From: Patescibacteria group bacterium
GTDB lineage: Bacteria; Patescibacteriota; Patescibacteriia; JAQUQO01
Length of the DNA: 64,000 bases
Assembly: GCA_028716045.1 (NCBI GenBank)
Contig: JAQUQO010000001.1
Span: forward strand, 725,176 to 789,175
Direction: 5' to 3'
Part shown: positions 4,732-53,997 of the stretch, piece after piece
Layout of the letters: each line of letters opens with the position of its first letter
Position numbering within the stretch: position 1 is the stretch's first letter
Program-made: the position numbers and the translations under genes
The notes under the pieces: model-generated
The model's database searches: none
Seen by the model: only the letters and a program-made list of their open reading frames with translations
Told to the model about the DNA's origin: nothing

Positions 4732-6447
4732 ATGTCCTTCCTTAACCCGCGTTCTGATGATTTAAAAAAAATCAAAAAACACGCCCGCTCTTGGTCGGCC
4801 GAGGAAGCCCGGGAACAATTCACTGAAAAAATGCAGGAAATCAGAATTAAGGAAAAAGAAAAAACTACGGCTGAAGAAGCCGCTACTCGGGGATTGCCCT
4901 ACATAAATCTCAAGGGAATTCCCATTAGTCCCGAAGTGCTTTCAAGTATTTCTAAAAAGCAGGCTGAAGAATTAAAGATTATCTGTTTTTTCAATAATGC
5001 CGGACAAATACGCCTGGGAGCATTGGAACCGGAAAAACCGGAAATGAAAGAATTGCTTTTTCAATTAGAGGAACGCTTCCACGGCCAAACCAAAATCTAT
5101 CTGATTTCCGAAGAAAGTTTTAACCAAGCTTTTAAACTTTATGATGCCATTCCGGAAATCAAAGAAGTGCCGACGGGTGTCACCATCAGCGAAGAGGAAC
5201 TTTCCAAATTCCGCGCGGAGTTAAAAACTTTTAAAGATTTAAACGCTCGAATTCAAAAAGCTTCTATCACTGACGTGATGGCTATGATTATCGCCTCCTC
5301 TCTAGAAAGCCGAGCTTCGGATATTCATATTGAGGCCGAGGAAGAAGACGTCAAAATTCGCTTTCGCATAGACGGCGTCCTGCAAGACACTGCCGTTTTG
5401 GAAAAATCCGTTTGGCCGAGGATTATCTCGCGGCTTAAAGTTGTCGCCGGACTGAAAATCAACGTGGAAGACGCGCCGCAGGACGGACGTTTCACTATTT
5501 TTATTAAAGAAGGTAAAACTGACGTCCGCGTTTCCACTTTGCCGACGGCCTACGGTGAAAGCGTGGTGATGCGCCTTCTTAAATCCACGGCCACCAGTTT
5601 ACAATTTGAGGAATTGGGACTACGCGGCGGCGCGTTGGAAAAATTAAAAAAAGAAATTGAGCGGCCCAATGGAATGATTATCACCACCGGCCCTACCGGC
5701 TCCGGTAAAACCACCACGCTTTACGCAATTATAAATAAATTGAACGAACCGGGGATAAAAATCATCACCTTGGAAGACCCGATTGAGTATAAATTAAAAG
5801 GCATTAATCAGAGCCAGATTGATTACTCCAAGGATTACACTTTTGCTAAGGGGTTGCGTTCAATTTTGCGCCAGGACCCGGACATTGTGATGGTGGGAGA
5901 AATTCGCGATTTGGAAACTGCGGAAATCGCCATTCAGGCCGCCCTAACGGGACATTTGGTAATTTCCACTATTCATACTAACAGCGCCGCCGGCGCCTTG
6001 CCGCGTTTTCTTTCCATGGGCGCCAAACCCTTTCTTTTAGCTCCGGCCATTAACGCCATCGTCGGGCAGAGATTGGTGAGAAAAATCTGCGAAGAATGTA
6101 AAAAGGAAATCTCGCCGGACACGGAAATTCTAAAAAGAGTAAAGGGCATTTTAGCCGAACTTCCCGAAGCCGAAAAAAAGAATGTTAATTTGGATAAGCT
6201 AAAATTTTATGCTGGCCAGGGTTGCGCGGCTTGCAACGGTATCGGCTTTAAAGGGCGCGTCGGCATTTACGAAATTATGAATATGAATCCCGAAATAGAA
6301 AAACTGATTCTCTCTGGTAATCTTTCCGAATACCAGATACAAGACATTGCCGTTAAAGATGGAATGGTGACCATGGTTCAAGACGGGCTGTTAAAAGCGT
6401 TAGACGGTATCACTTCCGTAGAGGAAGTATTTAAAGTAGCGGAGTAA
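4732..6447 (+). CDS. pilB: type IV pilus / type II secretion assembly ATPase (PilB/GspE family)
   Basis: Walker A GPTGSGKTTT, Asp box, His box (ISTIHTNSAAGA) and a C-terminal tetracysteine motif (CEEC...CAACNG). Confidence 0.85.
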   Translation: MSFLNPRSDDLKKIKKHARSWSAEEAREQFTEKMQEIRIKEKEKTTAEEAATRGLPYINLKGIPISPEVLSSISKKQAEELKIICFFNNAGQIRLGALEPEKPEMKELLFQLEERFHGQTKIYLISEESFNQAFKLYDAIPEIKEVPTGVTISEEELSKFRAELKTFKDLNARIQKASITDVMAMIIASSLESRASDIHIEAEEEDVKIRFRIDGVLQDTAVLEKSVWPRIISRLKVVAGLKINVEDAPQDGRFTIFIKEGKTDVRVSTLPTAYGESVVMRLLKSTATSLQFEELGLRGGALEKLKKEIERPNGMIITTGPTGSGKTTTLYAIINKLNEPGIKIITLEDPIEYKLKGINQSQIDYSKDYTFAKGLRSILRQDPDIVMVGEIRDLETAEIAIQAALTGHLVISTIHTNSAAGALPRFLSMGAKPFLLAPAINAIVGQRLVRKICEECKKEISPDTEILKRVKGILAELPEAEKKNVNLDKLKFYAGQGCAACNGIGFKGRVGIYEIMNMNPEIEKLILSGNLSEYQIQDIAVKDGMVTMVQDGLLKALDGITSVEEVFKVAE

Positions 6448-7283: not shown

Positions 7284-7846
7284 TTTTGGGGCAAGGCTTA
7301 GAAATGTCCGAATGTACAAAAAATCGTGGAATCGGTAGATTTTAAGACACTCTTGATATCGCCCCGTTGCCGAAGGGAGGTTCTTCCTTCATCTTTTTTT
7401 CTTTCTCTTGTCTGTTTTTTGGTCTGATTGACAATTGGCAGATACTCTATCTGTGCTACTTACTAGTCGTTCACCTTACATACCTCCTTTCAATTTTGAG
7501 GGTAATTATTGGGATTTTTATAGGTCCTTCCCCAACCTCCATAGAGAAGGACCTACTTATTCCCTTAAAATTTAGTCAGGCATAACACCCTCCTTTGTTA
7601 CTGGTTGACTAAATACACCGCTATTCTTTTAAAATAACAAAATTACTGCTGGCTCCTATATTATCATATGTCTTATATATTGTCAATAGTGGTTGACAAA
7701 GGCCTGTGGATAACTTTTTAAAAATACCCCGTAAAAAATTATTATTTTCTATAAATGTCATAAAAAAATAACAATATTATGAGCTTTATTTTTAGCTTAA
7801 ATTAGCCAAAAAATTAAATAATATTTATAAATTAAGTCAGGGGGGC

Positions 7847-7875
7847 TTGACAAATTTTTTAGGGTGTGTTATAGT
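7847..7875 (+). promoter_or_regulatory. consensus sigma70-like promoter (TTGACA-17-TATAGT) driving an ORF-free transcript
   Basis: TTGACA at 7847-7852, a 17-nt spacer, TATAGT at 7870-7875. A TTAGCTTAAATTAGCCAAAAAA element and a DnaA-box 9-mer lie upstream. Confidence 0.6.
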
Positions 7876-7881
7876 GGTGCT

Positions 7882-8365
7882 ATCAGTTGTCGAAGTTCCT
7901 TAAAACTAAATTTAAAAAATTCTGACAAGCACCGGGATAAGGGTAAAAACTTCCCAAAATATTGTATTCCAACGGCCCCCTACGGCCTTGGGATATTACT
8001 CTTCCTTTTATGGAGAGTGCCCATGCTTGTTACTAGGGGCTACCACCCCCGGTGTTTGTCAGAATCTAAAATTTTTGCACAGTTTGGGGTAGTGTAGGAG
8101 CCGGTTACTTCGACTAAAAAGAGATAACCAATTTGTTGCTTAGCCATCCTCCGTTTAAGGAAGAAAATGGCTAAACGCAATTTGCTTTGCAATATGCTGA
8201 AGTAAATTGTGGCGGAATGAAAGTTCCACCTCTGCTCTGCGCGAAAGTGTAAAGCAGGGGCCAAAGCGATACGGCGCCGCGGCAAGCACCGACCCCGCCT
8301 CTTCTCCCCAAATTGAGCAATTTTACATGCCCGACGATAATTATTTCGTCGGGCTCCTTTCTCAA
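7882..8365 (+). ncRNA. candidate structured non-coding RNA (putative Y-RNA-like partner of the adjacent Ro60/Rsr)
   Basis: There is no credible ORF or RBS in this stretch. An 18-bp helix pairs 7919-7936 (ATTCTGACAAGCACCGGG) with 8048-8065 (CCCGGTGTTTGTCAGAAT) and encloses internal hairpins. A 9-bp GCCCGACGA...TCGTCGGGC hairpin at 8330-8357 is followed by a U-rich tract. The transcript lies immediately 5-prime of rsr. Confidence 0.45.
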
Positions 8366-8539
8366 GTCAGAAACTTATCCGGCTTGAGAAAGGGGCTTGG
8401 TAGTGTAGATAAGGGATACTTCGGATATCGGTTTCTATTTAAGCATTGCCCTTGTCACTTTTTCTCCAGGAACCTTGTAATTTGATAACACAAAACTGCC
8501 GTCTGATAAATATCGGACTGGTGTAAGGAGGGAATTTAA

Positions 8540-25253: not shown

Positions 25254-25471
25254 TATTTCACGGTCTTTGAAAACCGTTTTTTAGCTAAAATTAGCAATCT
25301 TTGCGGTTACAACGTCTAAAAGTGGTTAGAGATATCCACGATAAAAAATCTCAAGAGACAATCACTTAGGTGTGGTGGTCTTATTAAGTAAATCCGTTTA
25401 ACTTAATATTCTCTTATATTTTGAGAGTTTTGTAGTCGGGGCTATTGTAAAATAGTTCCGATAAAACTCTT

Positions 25472-26950
<1,479 letters not shown>

Positions 26951-27061
26951 CTAGGGAGAAAAAACAGATAGAATGTTCGAATTCGACATTCTATCCATTT
27001 AGGTCGACTCCGAGCAATCGGAGTAACGTTGTAACCACAAAGGTCTGCTAATTAGTGAAAA

Positions 27062-27100
27062 AGATTGGCTCTTTACTCTTGATAATGCCAATCTTTTTTG
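27062..27100 (+). terminator. rho-independent terminator between 16S and tRNA-Ile
   Basis: AGATTGGC...GCCAATCT stem followed by TTTTTT. Confidence 0.6.
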
Positions 27101-27107
27101 GTATAAT
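27079..27107 (+). promoter_or_regulatory. promoter (TTGATA-17-TATAAT) overlapping the preceding terminator
   Basis: TTGATA sits in the terminator loop, followed by a 17-nt spacer and TATAAT at 27102-27107. Upstream of tRNA-Ile. Confidence 0.45.
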
Positions 27108-27203
27108 ACATAAATAAATTGAGGCCGTTGATTAATTTAACGGACTCATCCTGATCCCGCTTAGCGGGAGAAGGATCTCGGAACGCTACTTAAAAGACCC
27201 CTC

Positions 27204-27280
27204 GGGCGCGTAGCTCAGTTGGTTAGAGCGCCACTCTGATAAAGTGGAGGTCGATGGTTCAACTCCATCTGCGCCCACCA
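27204..27280 (+). tRNA. tRNA-Ile (anticodon GAT), CCA encoded
   Basis: Cloverleaf by eye: GGGCGCG acceptor, anticodon loop CTGATAA, T-arm GATGGTTCAACTCCATC. Confidence 0.85.
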
Positions 27281-27392
27281 AAGAAAGATATTTAAATACT
27301 CTTTTAACTGGCGGGATGATAAAATAGAAGTTGATAATAAAACTCTCGTAGTCCCGAGTATTCGGGACGGAGACCCCGACTTTATGTCGGGG

Positions 27393-27407
27393 CATCTGCG
27401 CCCACCA
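27393..27407 (+). repeat. duplicate of the tRNA-Ile 3-prime end (CATCTGCGCCCACCA), preceded by GC hairpins
   Basis: Exact repeat of the last 15 nt of tRNA-Ile lying about 125 bp downstream. It is preceded by CCCCGAC-TTTAT-GTCGGGG and GTCCCGA-GTAT-TCGGGAC hairpins. Confidence 0.7.
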
Positions 27408-27428
27408 AAATAAATAAAACCGGCGGGA

Positions 27429-27505
27429 GGGCACCTAGCTCAGTTGGTTAGAGCGTCACATTGACATTGTGAAGGTCAGAGGTTCAACTCCTCTGGTGCC
27501 CACCA
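27429..27505 (+). tRNA. tRNA-Val (anticodon GAC), CCA encoded
   Basis: Acceptor GGGCACC/GGTGCCC. Anticodon stem TCACA/TGTGA with loop TTGACAT. Confidence 0.8.
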
Positions 27506-27512
27506 AACATTT

Positions 27513-28091
27513 ATGGACAATCAACCGTCTGTTATAAAAAAATATATCCTGGAATCCCTGGAACAGCTTGAACCGGTGGACGAGCAGGAAATTCAGGATA
27601 AAAAGAAAATCAAAAATTTTTTGGTTTTGCATCCGCAAAATTTTTATGACATTGAAAATTATAAAGGCCACGTCACGGTAAGCGGTGTTATTGTCTGCCG
27701 CGACCAGCTATTGCTTTTTAAAAAAAATAAATCCTCTCCTTGGGGACAGCTTCATAATCATTGTGAGGAAGGAGAATTCCCCTTCGCCACCATAAAAAAA
27801 ATACTGGAAGAAAAAACCGGAATAACCGACCTTAAACCAAGGTTTATAGATGAGGAGGAAAGACCGCTCCCCTATCAATGTGAAGTTTATGACATAGATG
27901 TCACACCGGACATTAAAACCGACCCCAATCATACTCATTTTGATTTGCTGTATCTTTTTGATATTAAAGACAAAAAAGCAGAAACGGAATTATCAGGAGA
28001 AGCGAAATGGTTTCCCAAAAACGAAGCGGCTAAACTAAACAAGCGCCTGCGGAAAGTGATTATGAAATTAATGGGGAAAATAATAATGTAA
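27513..28091 (+). CDS. hypothetical protein (weak Nudix-like segment)
   Basis: ORF starts immediately after tRNA-Val. The GQLHNHCEEGEFPFATIKKILEEKTGI segment only loosely resembles a Nudix box. Confidence 0.4.
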   Translation: MDNQPSVIKKYILESLEQLEPVDEQEIQDKKKIKNFLVLHPQNFYDIENYKGHVTVSGVIVCRDQLLLFKKNKSSPWGQLHNHCEEGEFPFATIKKILEEKTGITDLKPRFIDEEERPLPYQCEVYDIDVTPDIKTDPNHTHFDLLYLFDIKDKKAETELSGEAKWFPKNEAAKLNKRLRKVIMKLMGKIIM

Positions 28092-28224
28092 AATACGCCG
28101 AGGTAGCCCTGCCTGCCGGCAGGCAGGTCAGCGGCCCGCTCGCAACGCCAAGACATCGTTTTGGCGGACGAGTAAATTAAAATATTAAATATTAGAAATA
28201 AGTTAGTGCATCTGCCATTCATTT

Positions 28225-28296
28225 GCCGAGGTAGCTCAGCGGTAGAGCGAAGGACTGAAAATCCTTGCGTCGTGAGTCCAACTCTCACCCTCGGCA
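28225..28296 (+). tRNA. tRNA-Phe (anticodon GAA)
   Basis: Acceptor GCCGAGG/CCTCGGC. Anticodon loop CTGAAAA. T-arm GTGAGTCCAACTCTCAC. Confidence 0.8.
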
Positions 28297-28302
28297 CAAA
28301 AC

Positions 28303-28361
28303 AAATTCAAAATTCAAAAATCAAAATTAAAAATGGGTACAAAATTTTTGAATTTTGAATT
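28303..28361. repeat. inverted pair of TTGAATTTTGAATT repeat units
   Basis: AATTCAAAATTCAAAAA at 28304-28320 is the reverse complement of TTTTTGAATTTTGAATT at 28345-28361. The same unit occurs twice inside tsaE. Confidence 0.7.
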
Positions 28362-28373
28362 TTTCATTTATGG

Positions 28374-28450
28374 CGGGGCATAGCGCAGTTGGCTAGCGCG
28401 CCTGCTTTGGGAGCAGGAGGTCGTGAGTTCAAGTCTCACTGCCCCGACCA
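28374..28450 (+). tRNA. tRNA-Pro (anticodon TGG), CCA encoded
   Basis: C1:G72 acceptor CGGGGCA/TGCCCCG. Anticodon stem CCTGC/GCAGG with loop TTTGGGA. Confidence 0.8.
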
Positions 28451-28473
28451 AGTTAAATCTTTTTAATAAAATT

Positions 28474-30357
28474 ATGGCTGAACCAAGATTTGGAGAAAAT
28501 TTTAATCCCGACGCAACCAATCGATTAGATATTCTTAAAAAGACAGAAGATCTACCCGAGTATGTTGACACTAGCCGAGAAATCAGGGAAGCGTTAAAAT
28601 CAACTATTGAAACCAGGGGATGGCCCGAATGTCCGGAAATTAAAACTGTTGAAGATTTATTTTTATTGGCCAAAAAAGAAGTAAGCCACAGGTGGACCGA
28701 GGGAGCGCAAAAAATTTTATGCGAACAGACAAAAAAATGGGCGGAAGAAATACCTGACAATCAAGAGAATAAAGAATTACGACAAACTCTTCTCTCTCCC
28801 GATTTACTAAGTAGTGAAATGGAGATGCAGAGATTCGGAGCGATGGAAAAATTACGAGACATCAACCCGTCAGCCTGGAGAACCCTATTATTGGCTTCAT
28901 CCGAAAGACAATTAGCCTCAATAGTTCTTCTAAGAAAATGGGCAGCGGATTTGCCGGAAGAAAATCTAAAATCTCTCGGAGTCAGCCGAACCGAATTAGA
29001 ATTACTGCTGGACTCTGCTGGTATTGTTGGAAAATATGTTGACCAAGCTTATATAAAACAAGTTGAGTTGGCTGATGCCCCCGGCGGATCGTCTAAAAGC
29101 GCTTGGGCGGGGAAAGTCGGCGCTGAATATCTTTACGATATTCAACCTTCACCCGAGAGCCAAACGGTTAAACCGACAAGCTACAAGGATGTCTTTGCTT
29201 TTGAATGGCCTAAATTAATTAATCGTTTTCAAGTTTTGGCCCAAAAAGTGGAAACCCTACTTGATGACAAAAAACTGCCGGAATCATATCGGGGTCTGCC
29301 GGAATATCTGCGAGAAATGTCACAAGTATATGGTTCTGAAAGTGTTTCGCCAAAAGAATTAAAAAAACTCTGGAACAGCTTGCTCGCGAAAAATTTGAAT
29401 CTGGCTAACGCCGGATGCCCGCTGATGTTTATCCCCCAAAGCTGCGATATGGTGGCCGGGGAAGCGGCTAAAATAGATGTGGAAATTCGCTTGGCTATTC
29501 AGACTCCGGAAACAAAAAAATTAACCCAAACGATGAATGATTTTGGGGGCGCCGCTCAAGAGCTCTTGGCTGAAAATAAGGATGCTTTAAAAAATTACTA
29601 CGACATCCCGGCGGTTGTTATTAATGTCCAACCCTTTGCTTTTGGCCCCAATTTATACTACTTTACCGAGGCCGAAGCCGGGAGAGAATCAATTCTTTTA
29701 CATGCTAATATAAATCAGGAGTTGTCATCCAAAGAGAGAATTCCGCTCTTGGAAAAAACCTTGGGACAACCAATTGATAAAAATAAATTTAAAGAGGCCT
29801 CAGGCAAAGATACGGTTCTTCATGAATTGGGCCATACGGTTTGCGTTGAAGATGACCCTTCTGTCAGAAAACGCATCGGCACTGGTTCTGACGCCGCTAT
29901 TATGGAAGAGCTAAAAGCCGAAACCGTAGGAATGGAAATACTGCTTAGAAAACAAACGGGCGATTCCAAAGAAAAAGAACAAATTATTGAACAACAATTT
30001 TTGGCTAAACTGGGAGCGCTGGAGCAATACTTAGCTTACTATTCCAGCGAACCTGGCAGCAGTACGGAGCGGTATTATTTTACCGGCGTGGCCATTATCT
30101 CAAAACTTTTAGAAGAAGACGTTTTAGTTGAGCTTGGAGATAAATACATAATTACCGACGCTGAACGCGGTCTGCGAATTATCGCCGATATGGGTTTAGA
30201 TATTCTTAAAAAAATCTATGCTAATACCGCTGACCAGCCAAAGAAAGTAAAAGAAGCAATGAAAGAATATGTTAGAGATGTTAAACAAAAAGAAAAAACT
30301 CCGCCGGTTGACAAATTTATCAAAAATGTTAAAAAGGATATCCGTGCTTCCAATTAG
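28474..30357 (+). CDS. large hypothetical protein with HExxH zinc-metallopeptidase-like motif
   Basis: ATG (MAEPRF) lies 24 nt after tRNA-Pro. VLHELGHTV motif near residue 455. No other recognisable domain. Confidence 0.5.
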   Translation: MAEPRFGENFNPDATNRLDILKKTEDLPEYVDTSREIREALKSTIETRGWPECPEIKTVEDLFLLAKKEVSHRWTEGAQKILCEQTKKWAEEIPDNQENKELRQTLLSPDLLSSEMEMQRFGAMEKLRDINPSAWRTLLLASSERQLASIVLLRKWAADLPEENLKSLGVSRTELELLLDSAGIVGKYVDQAYIKQVELADAPGGSSKSAWAGKVGAEYLYDIQPSPESQTVKPTSYKDVFAFEWPKLINRFQVLAQKVETLLDDKKLPESYRGLPEYLREMSQVYGSESVSPKELKKLWNSLLAKNLNLANAGCPLMFIPQSCDMVAGEAAKIDVEIRLAIQTPETKKLTQTMNDFGGAAQELLAENKDALKNYYDIPAVVINVQPFAFGPNLYYFTEAEAGRESILLHANINQELSSKERIPLLEKTLGQPIDKNKFKEASGKDTVLHELGHTVCVEDDPSVRKRIGTGSDAAIMEELKAETVGMEILLRKQTGDSKEKEQIIEQQFLAKLGALEQYLAYYSSEPGSSTERYYFTGVAIISKLLEEDVLVELGDKYIITDAERGLRIIADMGLDILKKIYANTADQPKKVKEAMKEYVRDVKQKEKTPPVDKFIKNVKKDIRASN

Positions 30358-30553
30358 GCCAAATCTTAAAAATTCGCGGGTGTCGCCTGCCTGCTCGCCT
30401 CGCTACCGCTATGGCGAAACAGGCCGGCAAGCAGGTATAGTGGTTTATTACCCGCCCGACTGCCTAGCGGCAGCAAGGCGAACGGGTGTCAGTCCCGCTA
30501 CAAGAGCGGGATTTCGTCCCGAGCACTCGGGTCTCAACCTTCCCAACATATTT

Positions 30554-30627
30554 GCGGGAGTAGTACAATGGTAGTACGCTAGCCTTCCAAGCTAGACACG
30601 CGGGTTCGATTCCCGTCTCCCGCTCCA
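30554..30627 (+). tRNA. tRNA-Gly (anticodon TCC), CCA encoded
   Basis: Acceptor GCGGGAG/CTCCCGC. Anticodon loop CTTCCAA. T-arm GCGGGTTCGATTCCCGT. Confidence 0.8.
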
Positions 30628-30630
30628 AAG

Positions 30631-50500: not shown

Positions 50501-50967
50501 TAACGACGGCCCTTGGCAAATTCCGAAGAAAAGAAAACGCCGGCCGAACGGATAATCTGGGAAACGACCGACCGCTCAATGCCGTTAATAATAAAAGTCC
50601 CGCGGCTGGTCATCAGAGGAAAATCACCCAAATATATTTCCTGATTAACTTTTTTGCCGGTGCGATTATTGACGAGTTGCACCTTGACTCTCAACGGCGC
50701 TTCATAGGTGACATTTTTTTCGCGGCTGGTCACTTCGTCAAATTTTGGTTCGTCTAAATAATAATCCACGAAATTCAGTTCCAAATCTCTTTTGGTAAAA
50801 TCGGTGATAGGAGAAACTTCTTCAAAAAGTTCCTTGACTCCTTCTTTAAAAAACCAGCGATAAGAATCTTTTTGAATACAAACGAGGTCAGGGAGGGGCA
50901 TCGCGTCTTTAATATAACTAAAGGCCACTCTGCCGTTTTCAGTTAAAACGTATTTGCCGTCGTTCAT
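47575..50967 (-). CDS. rpoB: DNA-directed RNA polymerase subunit beta
   Basis: Conserved Rif-cluster and catalytic regions. The start is assigned to MNDGKYVL (ATG at 50965-50967) rather than the longer ORF. Confidence 0.95.
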
Positions 50968-51419
50968 ATATATTTTAAAAATTATTTTATTAATTATTAA
51001 AATTTTGGATAACAAAAAATCTCCCCACAAAGGAGTTTCGGGGGCGAGTTTAAACTAAAAGATGGATTGTTTTTCAGCTAAGATAAGCATGAAATTTTTG
51101 CCAAGCCGTTCACAATTTTTAATGGGAAAGTCCCTTTTTGCTTTGAACGGATTCCTTCTGACGAAGGAAAAATGGCTAATATAAAAGAAAAAACGCTCGA
51201 TAGAAATAATTGACTTTTACGTATCTTTTATACTAACAAAGTTTAAATAAACTGTCAAGCAATTCTAAGTTGTCAAGTATTTGATTCTTTTATCTAAAAT
51301 TAGCCAAAATTGACGAAATCTCTGATTTCTATCCACAAGCGCATATTAACCCACTAATAACACTTTATCCACAAAATTATTTTTTTATCTAATATTAGCC
51401 AAAAAATATGGGATGCGTC

Positions 51420-51448
51420 TTGACAAAATCGTTAAAATATGCTATTAT
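51420..51448 (+). promoter_or_regulatory. promoter (TTGACA-17-TATTAT), first of two near-identical tandem promoters
   Basis: GTCTTGACAAAATC...TATTAT. A second copy lies at 51590-51618 (GTCTTGACAAAATC...TATAAT). Confidence 0.45.
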
Positions 51449-51778
51449 AATTTGTTATGGATAAAAATCCGGACGATGTAACGCTTGACCCTGTCTTTAA
51501 AAAACTTGAGCCGGGCAAGATAAGGGGATTTAAAAAGCTTGAATTATATCAAAAAACCCTTATTTTTCAACAAAATTCAGGCAAGGGTCTTGACAAAATC
51601 ATCCGAATGTGGTATAATAAAAGGTTAAAAATAAATGAACTTTAAAACCTATTGGGGAGAGAGTTATCCCGATTTCTCGGGATAAGCCCAATTGTTTTTA
51701 TCGGCTTTATTATAAATTTATACCAGCAGATACCGTTAACCAGTATCTGCTGATATATGATATATATGGAAGCTTAAA

Positions 51779-51837
51779 GGCGGTTGGAAAACTCTCTCAT
51801 TAACCAAAAACGGGACAGTTTTTCAACCGCCTTTTTG
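51779..51837 (+). terminator. hairpin followed by U-tract (terminator or attenuator) inside the long non-coding region
   Basis: GGCGGTTG...CAACCGCC stem followed by TTTTT. Confidence 0.4.
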
Positions 51838-52241
51838 GTTGCCAGAAACAGGAGGGGTAGAAACTTATTTGACGCCCGGCCTAAGGAGGGCCGGCGGCAA
51901 ATAAGCGGCGCTAACTTGGATAATTCCGGTTCTACTGGAAATATCCCAGCCAACCGCCATGCTAAGCGGTGCGCATGCGCACAAAAACTTGGCCTCTATC
52001 CTCCGCTTTCTGACAATCAAAATTGCTTCTGACATGGAGAGTTGGAGGGCACAAAATAATTTAAATAAAAATTAAACAACGCTCGGCCCTATCAATTCTC
52101 CATATCAGAGGCAATTAAGGCAATCGTTCGCGATTGCCCGTCCGTCCGAATCTATGAGGTTTATCTCCTTGTGAGGTAAATTTCATAGATTTAGACGGAC
52201 CTTGATTAACATTTGATTAACAATAGAGGAGGAAAAGGGAA

Positions 52242-52385
52242 ATGATGACGAAAACCCATAATGAGAAAAATTTCGGCGGCGTAAATCATTACAAGAGCTT
52301 CTTTGATTACAATTCGCTGATGAATTTTTTCTTCTTCGTCGTATTGGCCGGCGGTTTAATCACTATGCTCGCCATCGGAAACTAA
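52242..52385 (+). CDS. small hydrophobic peptide (47 aa), possible membrane microprotein
   Basis: Strong RBS AGAGGAGG precedes ATG. C-terminal FFFFVVLAGGLITMLAIG helix. Absent from the ORF track because it is under 60 aa. Confidence 0.35.
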   Translation: MMTKTHNEKNFGGVNHYKSFFDYNSLMNFFFFVVLAGGLITMLAIGN

Positions 52386-52778
52386 AAAAAAATCAAAAAA
52401 TGGGGGAGCCAAAAACTCCCCTCCATAACCTTCGTTAAAAAGTTTTTAGCGAGAGTTATGGAGGGGCGCGACAGTCGCAAGACAATCCGTAAGGATATTT
52501 GTCGCCTTGCCTTTCGCGGCTTGTGTGAGCTTAACCCTCACCCCCTCCAGACAAAAATAACGGCCTTTTTAAAAGCCGACTAAATAAATTTCCTCCTAGA
52601 TACGGGGGCGAACAGAAACATCTGTTTGCCCCCCGTTTCTTACCAAAAGAAAATAGTTGATAAAATTTTTATCAAACTTTTTTTCTTGATAAGAGAGTTG
52701 TTCTTTAAAAACCTTTTTGCCAATCGGTAAAAAGTTTAAAATAAATTTTTAACCTTTTAATTTAAGGAGGAACTAGCA

Positions 52779-53519
52779 ATGGCAAGATGTGAAAGATGCT
52801 TCGAACCAGTTGAATTCCCAAAGGAAAAAATCATTCAAAGGGATTCTAAGACTGGCAAATTTACTAAGGAGTGGAGGTGGAGGTGGTGGGCAAAGCCCAA
52901 AAAACCCGGAAGTCACCATCCGACGAAAATTTTTTGCTTTACTTGCATGCGGGAAGAAGACAAAAAAATCCGCAAGCCGTGGGAGAAAGGAAGACTTTTC
53001 TTCCCCTTGGCAGAATCATTAGAAAGAGATGCCGAGGTGGATAAACCCCTGAAGGAAAAACAGGCGGAAGTAGGCGGAGAACATCCGGAAATCGTCTGCT
53101 CCCATCCAGGGTGCAACCACCACCATGGTCAAATAGTGGAAGCAAAGTTTGGCCCTAAGGTAGTGAGAATCGATGATGTTCTCGCCGCGGACCGCGAAGA
53201 AACTTTTCACGAAGTGATTGAGCGGATTAAAAAAACCGGAAAAATTCCTTACATCTGCTCTTTCCATAAAAAAGAGAGGATTGAGGGAAAAAAGCGGGGA
53301 GAATTCATCAAGTTCTTCATCGCCGAAGAAGTGGAAAACATTCTTCGCAAAATCGGCTTCATCTACCCCAGCGCAAACGCTCCGAGGGAAGAGAATGAGG
53401 CAAAAGAAATTTTCAATAATCCTTTTGCCGAAAAACTTCCGTCGTTGATTGCGGTCCACAAAGAAAAACTCCAAAAACAAAAAGAACACCGGCACCAACA
53501 ACCGGTAGTAAATAACTAA
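52779..53519 (+). CDS. hypothetical Cys/His-rich (zinc-finger-like) protein
   Basis: RBS AAGGAGGAA. CxxC (CERC), CFTC, CSHPGCNHHH and CSFH clusters. Confidence 0.5.
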   Translation: MARCERCFEPVEFPKEKIIQRDSKTGKFTKEWRWRWWAKPKKPGSHHPTKIFCFTCMREEDKKIRKPWEKGRLFFPLAESLERDAEVDKPLKEKQAEVGGEHPEIVCSHPGCNHHHGQIVEAKFGPKVVRIDDVLAADREETFHEVIERIKKTGKIPYICSFHKKERIEGKKRGEFIKFFIAEEVENILRKIGFIYPSANAPREENEAKEIFNNPFAEKLPSLIAVHKEKLQKQKEHRHQQPVVNN

Positions 53520-53725
53520 AATGCCGAAAGGAAAAAGGTAAGAATGAAATTAAACAACTTGTAGGGGAATTACGAATCCTCATTTGCATCCCTACAAAGT
53601 AAAAAAAGAATGGGGTAAGGCAGACAACAATCTGCCTTTCTTTACCAGCCCGTTAACGAGTTAGCGGTCTGATAAAGAAACTCTTTCCAAGATTCATAAT
53701 TTACAATATAATAAATGAGGTGCAG

Positions 53726-53915
53726 CCGGCAGAGGGCTGCGAACACACGAACTTCAATCGGGTTGGAGAAAAAAAGTCTCCCTAAAAGCGGGGACTCTCC
53801 GATCCTTCGGGTGAGGAGTTTCCCGTGATACGGGGAAAATCTCTCTCCTCGACTTTTTGGCTTTAATTCGTAAATTAAAGTTCTAGTGCCGTTCGCAGCC
53901 CTCTGCCGGTTTTTT
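53726..53915 (+). ncRNA. candidate ~190-nt structured RNA closed by a 19-bp perfect helix and a U-tract
   Basis: CCGGCAGAGGGCTGCGAAC (53726-53744) pairs perfectly with GTTCGCAGCCCTCTGCCGG (53891-53909), followed by TTTTTTG. Internal hairpins are present, including a CUUCGG loop and GGAGA-AAAAAAG-TCTCC. No ORF. Confidence 0.4.
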
Positions 53916-53997
53916 GTTTACCCGATTGGCTAATCGGACTGAATATGTTATAATTTCTAAATAACCGAGTTTAAAATTTTATCTTATTTTTACAAAT

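Follow-up and report, generated by a model that had tools for sequence, protein, structure and literature searches.

A conserved structured RNA between rpoB and a zinc-ribbon gene in a Patescibacteria genome

We analysed the space between rpoB and a cysteine-rich protein gene in a 64,000-nt stretch of DNA from a Patescibacteria group bacterium (contig JAQUQO010000001.1; hereafter the window, meaning this stretch at its full length). rpoB lies on the minus strand with its start at 50967, the cysteine-rich gene, whose product has a zinc-ribbon-like domain, lies on the plus strand with its start at 52779, and the true gap between the two is 50968-52778 (1811 nt). Comparison with related loci showed the elements of this gap, their strand, their conservation and covariation, and their linkage to the zinc-ribbon gene, and the covariation shows that the gap carries a functional structured RNA, predicted to be read from the plus strand. 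Tentatively, and with a little less than even confidence, we read this RNA as a lineage-specific structured leader, or a transcript of the dual-function type, that would act in cis on small open reading frames (ORFs) and be linked to the zinc-ribbon gene.

An earlier note, made from the sequence alone, had described a non-coding region dense in promoters and hairpins, and every element that it listed was found again at the same coordinates. Its hairpins are all real (51719-51757, 51776-51834 followed by U5, 51969-51982, 52119-52138, 52140-52200, 52418-52466 and 52604-52633). Segments of 200 nt between 51600 and 52800 fold at z = -4 to -11, as compared with about 0 to -1 for the flanking coding sequence, and the 621-nt plus-strand segment 51625-52245 reaches -262 kcal/mol against -157 +/- 7 kcal/mol for its shuffles (z = -15.5). 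The folding and the promoter density of the gap are confirmed to be far beyond chance. GC content rises to 0.44-0.51 inside the gap, with AT-rich edges at about 0.30, and the remaining intergenic spacers of the genome are mostly short.

A GTDB search anchored on rpoB returned at least 80 loci from other Patescibacteria; in the nearest among the rpoB loci listed (L001-L009, 63-73% identity) the gene upstream of rpoB is a Mur-ligase gene, and these loci show no similarity to the gap. The useful loci came instead from contigs carrying homologues of the cysteine-rich protein and from one DNA-pattern match in JGI metagenomes. Three of them are close: L084 (1.7 kb, 5′ end cut; cysteine-rich protein 43% identical), L085 (7 kb; protein 37% identical) and L093 (10.6 kb; 82-88% nucleotide-identical to L085), the last with the same divergent rpoB and the same ftsK, helix-turn-helix (HTH) gene and recA as the window, where these three follow the 246-amino-acid (aa) cysteine-rich ORF in that order. 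Two more distant lineages (L091/L092 and L087-L090) encode proteins only about 25% identical to that of the window, and their loci adjoin rpoBC or HU-YmdB-RNase Y. L091 and L087 keep the order of parts seen in the window: palindrome, tandem promoters, the four-way-junction domain that we call domain A, a long hairpin, a Shine-Dalgarno (SD) sequence with a small ORF, hairpins and the cysteine-rich gene.

Between the window and L085/L093 the nucleotide identity is 71-73% for domain A and the long hairpin (domain B) and 75-76% for the gap downstream of the cysteine-rich gene. The corresponding values are 74% for rpoB and 71% for ftsK, the HTH gene and recA, whereas the cysteine-rich protein itself is 37-43% identical in amino acids. 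Identity of the non-coding blocks at the level of rpoB points to purifying selection as strong as that on core genes. Patescibacteria (candidate phyla radiation, CPR) genomes are smaller than 1 Mb and tightly packed, and the RNA biology of the phylum is almost unknown. Because the genomes are so small and packed, about 1.8 kb of gap conserved as strongly as rpoB is costly and presumably important. The comparative genomics of the leader that the earlier note had proposed found both the RNA and a microprotein downstream of it to be conserved in relatives.

It is scarcely credible, on this evidence, that the gap is non-functional DNA, that is, a decayed gene, mobile-element remnants or species-specific palindromic repeats that merely fold. 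The nearest rpoB relatives listed do carry the Mur-ligase gene in place of the region, and a tRNA-like piece in its 3′ part, described below, might be a tRNA-Ser gene in decay or a former attachment site. Yet Mur-ligase proteins compared with the window by tblastn gave no match in the gap, none of the gap hairpins has a second copy elsewhere in the 64-kb window, which also rules out a repeat or a miniature inverted-repeat transposable element (MITE), and no ORF in the region is conserved except the microprotein. The rpoB-like conservation comes with compensatory changes in L084, L085 and L093, and the architecture is kept in L087 and L091.

The compensatory changes are clearest in two adjoining domains on the plus strand. 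Domain A (51835-52020) is a four-way junction in which three hairpins are held inside a closing helix of about 20 bp, where UUGGUUGnnAGAAAC-AGGAGGG pairs with CUAUCCUCC-Gn-UUUCUGnCAAUCAA; the palindrome GTGCGCATGCGCAC (51969-51982) forms one arm, and its equivalent in L085 is GGCGC-UUCG-GCGC. Domain B (52021-52116) is a nearly perfect hairpin of about 40 bp with a conserved AU-rich tip, and an equivalent long hairpin stands 3′ of domain A in all five homologues. Alifold and single-sequence folds of all five homologues gave the same architecture of the two domains. With the closing helix aligned and registered by hand, 93% of the cells are paired and five pairs have changed on both sides, while slid controls gave 38-57% paired cells and at most one such pair. 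The CCUCC on the 3′ strand of domain A is invariant in all lineages and the neighbouring pairs covary. A covariance model of domain A (R1) scored 177-218 bits on three close sequences and matched L091 (31.8 bits, E about 1e-7) and L087 (17.6 bits, E about 8e-4) at the syntenic place and on the same strand. A viral origin was dismissed after scans of viral contigs with two domain-A patterns both came back empty.

Two further plus-strand hairpins follow domain B. H6 (52119-52138) consists of GGCAAUCG-UUCG-CGAUUGCC, and its equivalent in L084, L085 and L093 comes after an extra ORF of 37-39 aa that is missing in the window. The upper half of H7 (52140-52200) is almost invariant (AUGAGGUUUnnnUCCUUGUGAGGUAAAUnUCAU) and its lower stem covaries: 26 of 26 pairs are kept in four genomes, eight have changed on both sides, and the G-U pairs fit the plus strand only. 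Counted per alignment, compensatory double changes amount to 11 pairs in A8, 10 in A16 and 16 in A3, and over the five sequences from three lineages such changes exceed those in slid or shuffled controls. For domains A and B the sense strand has a lower minimum free energy (MFE) than the antisense strand in all five sequences; we assign the RNA to the plus strand because this lower sense MFE agrees with the promoter orientation, the terminator U-tract and the conserved G-U pairs.

Rfam, searched over the whole window at gathering thresholds, returned only the 16S rRNA and tRNAs, and over 50900-52900 at E <= 10 it gave only chance-level microRNA and small-RNA matches far below threshold; on the relatives L084-L092 no family matched. 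The gap is thus not placed by Rfam in any riboswitch family, nor among RNase P, tmRNA, SRP, 6S, OLE, GOLLD, ROOL, raiA, T-box or intron families, and ARAGORN at default settings found no tRNA or tmRNA in it. A divergent RNase P, SRP or 6S RNA was also considered for domain A and rejected, the signature motifs being absent by eye and Rfam negative. The earlier note would have taken the lack of an Rfam match, together with a lack of transcript evidence, as refutation; this proved too strict, because the comparative covariation argues for a functional RNA despite the negative Rfam scan.

The 14-mer GTCTTGACAAAATC occurs in exactly two copies, at 51417 and 51587, 170 nt apart, and these correspond to the two near-identical promoters of the earlier note, which were borne out. 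Both are near-perfect, with an extended TG: P1 (51419-51448, plus strand) reads CTTGACA-17-TATTAT and P2 (51589-51618, plus strand) CTTGACA-17-TATAAT, so that 11 and 12 of the 12 sigma-70 consensus positions match, and these predicted promoters are conserved in relatives. P2 is kept in 5/5 homologous sequences (in the window and in L085, L093, L091 and L087), and a tandem promoter upstream of it is found in four of the five (window, L085, L091 and L087), L093 having one promoter. The spacing between P1 and P2 is 85 nt in L085 and 72-77 nt in L087 and L091. Transcription from P2 would start near 51625. The pattern CTTGACA-N16-18-TANNAT occurs eight times in the 64-kb window, where 0.07 are expected; three of the eight lie in the gap (P1, P2 and one on the minus strand), and the remaining five are all intergenic and upstream of genes, the 16S rRNA gene included, so we take this pattern to be the promoter of the organism. 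Downstream of the 16S gene itself come tRNA-Ile and tRNA-Val, then protein-coding ORFs and more tRNAs (25470-30630); no 23S or 5S gene lies inside the window, which makes the rRNA operon an unlinked one.

The minus-strand promoter (51230-51259, CTTGACA-17-TAGTAT with extended TG) faces rpoB and implies a predicted rpoB 5′ untranslated region (UTR) of about 255 nt. Together with rpoB, the segment 50968-51374 can be aligned to L093 at 74%, and this UTR region is moderately structured (z about -4 at 51100-51299). A palindromic, operator-like motif, TAA(A/T)ATTAGCCAA, stands in two plus-strand copies upstream of the tandem promoters (51295-51307 and 51390-51402), with an inverted half-site TGGCTAAT at 51173-51180 (motif region 51173-51187). 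The TGGCTAA..TTAGCCA palindrome is found upstream of the tandem promoters in every lineage (L087 at about 5003-5018, L091 at about 948-961, L093 on the minus strand) and is only mildly enriched over the window as a whole, with 13 occurrences at <= 2 mismatches where 6.4 are expected; a transcription factor probably binds there.

The predicted 5′ leader (51625-51775, plus strand, about 150 nt) begins with the conserved GUUAAAnAUAAAnGAnCnUUAAAAC...GGGGAGAGAGU and contains hairpins at 51664-51685 and 51719-51757. Its first 45 nt or so are conserved with L085 and L093. The hairpins keep their place in relatives but not their sequence, the CAGCAGATAC hairpin being represented there by an AU-rich one. 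Hairpin H3 (51776-51839, plus strand) follows; its stem, GGCGGUUGG...CCAACCGCC (51776-51834), and the U5 behind it have the make-up of an intrinsic terminator, and the U-tract extends into the helix that closes domain A. H3 shows compensatory pairs relative to L085 and is found in L085 and L093, but is absent in L091 and L087. The cluster of small RNAs that the earlier note had also considered is possible in so far as H3 with its U5 could release an RNA of about 215 nt.

A leaderless 62-aa ORF (51457-51645) had been proposed behind the first promoter, and it does start 9 nt past that -10 element. It is not conserved, however: it cannot exist in L085, L087 and L091, because P1 and P2 are only 72-85 nt apart there, and L093 has a single promoter, so the ORF does not qualify as a leaderless mRNA. 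The 16-codon mini-ORF (51636-51686), proposed behind the second promoter, does overlap the hairpin at 51664-51685 as stated, but this hairpin has no adjacent U-run and is not a canonical terminator, and L085 and L093 have no ATG at that position though the surrounding nucleotides are conserved. With neither a conserved mini-ORF nor a U-run beside the hairpin, the leader-peptide/attenuator layout of the earlier note falls away and is probably fortuitous, specific to one genome. The 62-aa ORF and an 82-aa ORF have no Pfam or NCBIfam match. A 56-aa minus-strand ORF inside domain A (51865-52035) is annotated by NCBI and the 62-aa plus-strand ORF, which runs across P2, was called by the Logan callers; neither is conserved in L085 or L093, and both are probably spurious.

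The same part of the locus bears on whether we are dealing with a ligand-sensing riboswitch or a leader-peptide attenuator, in which the leader or domain A would bind a metabolite, or translation of the 16-codon ORF would be sensed, to control the H3 terminator or the SD of the microprotein. Such control would find a terminator-like element in H3 with its U5, placed between leader and domain A and kept in L085 and L093; there is a conserved 8-9-nt complementarity between the leader (GAGAGAGU) and the apical ACU(C/U)UCUC of H3, and a four-way junction with conserved unpaired residues is compatible with an aptamer. We consider it improbable all the same. The pairing of the leader with H3 reaches only the tip and not the GC-rich base, and hence does not form an antiterminator; L091 and L087 lack both H3 and the 150-nt leader; neither the mini-ORF nor the 62-aa ORF is conserved. 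Compact aptamers are not built of long, nearly perfect helices such as these, the downstream genes offer no metabolic clue, and the riboswitch of the earlier note gained nothing from Rfam, which gave no riboswitch match at gathering thresholds or even at E <= 10.

Downstream of H7, the SD GAGGAGGA (52226-52233) precedes a 47-aa microprotein, ORF-B (52242-52385, plus strand; hypothetical in NCBI). That it is strongly preceded by a ribosome-binding site holds true, with GGAGG 9 nt upstream of the ATG. The N-terminal half of the predicted protein is polar, and at its C-terminus a hydrophobic helix ends in IGN. Equivalents of 45-49 aa stand at the same place in L084, L085 and L093 with the same polar-then-hydrophobic layout, and the C-terminus is similar in three of the four; a protein-homology search returned only the query itself. 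As position, length and polarity pattern are the same in four genomes, we consider the predicted 47-aa microprotein real, and apart from it no ORF of the gap is conserved. The relatives have in addition, between domain B and H6, the hydrophobic 37-39-aa ORF mentioned above, ORF-A (MFKVIIIVIALSGIWVAG...; MFKVIIIVIALSGIWVAGT...), at 1-120 in L084, 660-773 in L085 and about 8298-8182 on the minus strand in L093. Differences in ORF-A among the relatives are mostly synonymous, and the window lacks this ORF.

A long structured leader stands before a small hydrophobic ORF with a strong SD, and in four genomes this ORF has the format of a putative toxin ORF. This would fit a type I toxin-antitoxin-like locus, in which the 47-aa peptide would be a membrane toxin, its mRNA would be kept inert by the structured flanks and a convergent antisense RNA from the minus strand, covering 52400-52650, would be the antitoxin. 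In all four genomes the hairpin that follows the stop codon resembles a minus-strand terminator with U-runs, the minus strand has the lower MFE at 52400-52700, and the SD could be reached by a 3′ CCUCC block folding back, as happens in hok-type mRNAs. Yet no minus-strand promoter of at least 9/12 was found between the ORF and the cysteine-rich gene in the window or in L093, and so no antisense gene is seen; the sole such promoter-like site of L085 (1004-976) lies inside ORF-B, and the promoters of the organism are otherwise strongly consensus. A minus-strand small RNA ending at the post-ORF hairpin was accordingly rejected, as it has no promoter and the U-runs are explained by A-rich spacers. 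In these reduced genomes the locus is also present in one copy, at a syntenic position, and is passed on vertically; the ORFs behind the same RNA architecture in L087 and L091 are acidic and not hydrophobic, and PADLOC, Pfam and NCBIfam gave no match. A toxin-antitoxin role is therefore decidedly improbable.

The two hairpins reported earlier 3′ of the microprotein (52418-52466 and 52604-52633) are both present. Directly 3′ of the stop codon there is a hairpin at 52403-52421, followed by the long one at 52418-52466, and on the plus strand both covary in relatives. The 3′ arm of the long hairpin can instead pair with a downstream copy of its 5′ arm and so form a tRNA-shaped element (52460-52552, plus strand), with a 7-bp acceptor-like stem GGAGGGG/CCCCUCC, internal arms and a T-arm-like GUGAG-CUUAACC-CUCAC adjoining the 3′ strand. 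Because the strand is shared, the tRNA-shaped fold and the long hairpin are mutually exclusive. The acceptor and T-arm shape is seen in the window, L085 and L093, while L084 has only a 4-bp acceptor-like stem and a hairpin with a 6-nt loop. In L085 and L093 the T-loops are canonical and ACCA is encoded, and the T-stems of these two differ by two compensatory pairs. None of the copies in the window, L084, L085 and L093 was called a tRNA by ARAGORN at default settings or by Rfam; at the 90% threshold ARAGORN took the L085 copy for tRNA-Ser(tga) and did not call the other three. A tmRNA was considered for the T-arm/ACCA element and set aside, since its 5′ partner lies only about 80 nt upstream and there is no tag ORF and no G3-U70.

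The 3′ end of the predicted RNA (52561-52643, plus strand) consists of a hairpin at 52561-52578, the unpaired, anti-SD-like AAAUUUCCUCCUA at 52586-52598 and a terminator hairpin at 52604-52633 with a U-rich tail. The AAAUUUCCUCCUA block is identical in L084 and differs by 1 nt in L085. The terminator hairpin covaries, and in relatives AACCU(C)UUUUU comes after it, as in an intrinsic terminator. Between it and the cysteine-rich gene, the segment 52685-52778 (plus strand) holds the palindrome CTTGATAAGAGA (52685-52696), a hairpin at 52712-52734, and an AU-rich leader with an SD. The palindrome is exact in L084 and L085 and differs at one position in L093 (TTTGATAAGAGA); as a -35 element it was rejected, there being no acceptable -10 at 16-18 nt.

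Taken as the structured leader or dual-function-type transcript that we tentatively favour, these parts would form one strongly expressed plus-strand transcript of about 1 kb, running from P1/P2 to the intrinsic terminator at 52604-52640, and we infer for it cleavage at domain B and at the tRNA-like element as well as competition between SD and anti-SD strands. It would serve as a cis-regulatory and processing leader for the small ORF or ORFs and, by read-through, for the zinc-ribbon gene. In its 5′ half AGAAAC-AGGAGG would pair with CCUCC-GC-UUUCU in domain A, as an extended SD strand with an anti-SD-like strand. The 16S rRNA of the organism ends in ...CACCUCCUUUCUA, and for this reason the closing helix resembles an extended SD:anti-SD duplex with a 2x2 loop. 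The invariant CCUCC strand may alternatively sequester the SD downstream of domain B. Domain B and the 52418-52466 hairpin could act as RNase III sites and the tRNA-like fold as an RNase P or RNase Z site. The 3′ half would comprise the 47-aa membrane microprotein, the hairpin/tRNA-like switch region and the exposed CCUCC beside the terminator. In favour of this arrangement, a conserved ORF stands together with conserved structured and anti-SD parts on one predicted transcript, no lineage has a terminator between domain B and the first SD, and RNAduplex found the first-ORF SD to be the best downstream partner of the CCUCC strand in the window and L087 and the second-best in L091.

Several observations weigh against it. 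The SD-pairing test is weak, in that any CCUCC strand prefers SDs, and the SD was not the top partner in L085 or L093. H3 with its U5 (51776-51839) resembles an efficient terminator and stands upstream of domain A. By MFE the competing hairpin is 6-12 kcal/mol more stable than the tRNA-like acceptor, and the tRNA-like element goes unrecognised by ARAGORN and Rfam in three of the four genomes. Five distinct sequences from three lineages make for thin covariation statistics, and the closing-helix alignment was registered by hand; the idea of one transcript is itself drawn from sequence. Finally, the small ORFs are non-homologous between lineages, with transmembrane (TM) peptides here and acidic soluble products of 51-56 aa in L087 and L091, and so the RNA may not exist to regulate small ORFs.

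This last point leads to a different role for domains A and B, as a stand-alone stable RNA excised from the transcript, for example by RNase III at domain B, that would act in trans in a ribonucleoprotein (RNP) with the zinc-ribbon protein and perhaps small membrane peptides, the ORFs being co-transcribed passengers or partners and not targets. RNase III cleaves long duplex hairpins such as one of about 40 bp, and domain B would suit it. Tandem consensus promoters are typical of stable-RNA genes, and those found here are stronger than the single 16S promoter of the window; the RNA and the zinc-ribbon gene are the sole components common to all three lineages, while the small ORFs change. OLE RNA, which forms an RNP with Oap proteins, provides a precedent (PMC9723947). 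On the other side, there is no terminator or obvious 3′ end after domain B, an SD follows within 10-120 nt, processing of the transcript is postulated, and the model of the zinc-ribbon protein has no recognisable RNA-binding fold (Foldseek against PDB, nothing below E = 0.3). We regard this role as possible but on the unlikely side. Going further, domains A and B might represent a new class of large structured RNA, more than a mere leader, that mimics the SD:16S-tail duplex and works with the zinc-ribbon protein as an RNP or as a regulator directed at the ribosome or the anti-SD, with the RNAs at 53740-53935 and 7845-8530 (see below) in the same set of undescribed abundant RNAs; this we hold to be unlikely.

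The leader or dual-function-type reading has parallels among known systems. Dual-function RNAs (RNAIII with hld, Pel, SR1, SgrS-SgrT) likewise combine a long multi-hairpin transcript with a small, often hydrophobic peptide. In RNAIII, C-rich loops pair with the SD sequences of targets. The RNAIII of S. aureus encodes the 26-aa delta-hemolysin and represses its targets by base-pairing (PMC12612679). With it the locus shares a predicted hairpin-rich transcript, here of about 1 kb, with a 47-aa TM peptide and an exposed CCUCC beside the terminator. Unlike the dual-function RNAs, it has no sequence or structural homology to them, is about twice as long, contains a four-way junction and a tRNA-like element, occurs in Patescibacteria and is tied to a zinc-ribbon gene. 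OLE RNA is encoded adjoining the genes of its Oap partner proteins. It is a large, ornate, lineage-restricted RNP with membrane-associated partner proteins (PMC9723947). The locus differs from it in having no Rfam OLE match, long near-perfect hairpins in place of many short conserved junctions and a putative soluble zinc-ribbon partner.

Ribosomal-protein leaders and other SD-sequestering platforms offer another comparison, as here too a structured 5′ leader carries a CCUCC that pairs with an internal SD-like strand or could pair with a real SD. Anti-SD switching is used by ribosomal-protein leaders and translational riboswitches. In contrast to these, the leader belongs to no known family, is 400-600 nt long and its switch is putative. 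A small hydrophobic ORF, a structured mRNA and a 5′-3′ fold-back are traits of type I toxin-antitoxin loci (hok/Sok, fst/RNAII, bsrG/SR4), and the locus shares the ORF, the structured mRNA with flanking hairpins and possibly the fold-back; it departs from them in that no antisense promoter was found, in its single-copy, syntenic and vertical inheritance and in the soluble ORFs of the sister lineages. The acceptor/T-arm mimicry, with ACCA in L085 and L093, recalls tRNA-like processing signals (tRNA-linked operons, 3′ external transcribed spacer-derived RNAs). Cleavage by RNase P or RNase Z at such an element would separate the mRNA from a terminal small hairpin RNA. Unlike these signals, the element is not a decoding tRNA, has no anticodon arm in three of the four genomes and sets its acceptor against a stronger hairpin. 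Membership in any of the compared families is not supported; judged by its sequence and predicted folds, the locus represents a new RNA family, narrow in distribution and of a general kind that is already known.

Domains A and B are always followed by the cysteine-rich gene (52779-53519, plus strand, 246 aa), the sole protein gene for which this holds; each lineage has it close to rpoBC or between flanks of 0.7-1.4 kb of non-coding DNA. Its family has six representatives in an exhaustive hidden Markov model (HMM) search of 1.84 billion proteins, and one homologue was found in an index of 5.8 billion proteins. The family shares the invariant pattern CxxC...CxxC...C...C..HGQ...C. The AlphaFold2 (AF2) model has a zinc-ribbon-like N-terminal domain, with a predicted local distance difference test (pLDDT) score of 74-93 over residues 1-80 and a mean of 65; Foldseek against PDB gave nothing below E = 0.3 for this model. 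No relatives of the family were found in Pfam or NCBIfam, and PADLOC gave only a stray weak match.

What emerges is an undescribed RNA family, made up of a four-way junction whose CCUCC helix is invariant and of a 40-bp hairpin, that is linked to a protein family of six representatives. If the reading as an SD/anti-SD mimic or as an RNP were true, it would give access to the control of translation in organisms that do not grow in culture on their own. Of practical use for annotation, the microprotein is recovered as conserved, and the calls of the 56-aa ORF (51865-52035, minus strand) and the 62-aa ORF (51457-51645) are probably spurious.

Two other non-coding stretches were noted in the window. 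The gap between the cysteine-rich gene and ftsK (53520-53997) is conserved, 75-76% nucleotide-identical to L085 and L093, and has no Rfam match even at E <= 5. It contains a promoter-like site and then a rod-like hairpin of about 190 nt (about 53743-53935) with a 33-bp lower stem, which closes with a terminator-like GCAGCCCTCTGCCGG+TTTTTTGT; over the whole block 14 pairs are compensatory, and the predicted rod shape recalls that of 6S RNA. The second stretch (7797-8530) is long, without an Rfam match and of similar build: it has the TTAAATTAGCCAA motif and a CTTGACA promoter (about 7846), followed by a structured part of about 650 nt (z = -4 to -7) that contains a CCAUCCUCCG hairpin and leads up to the gene at 8540.

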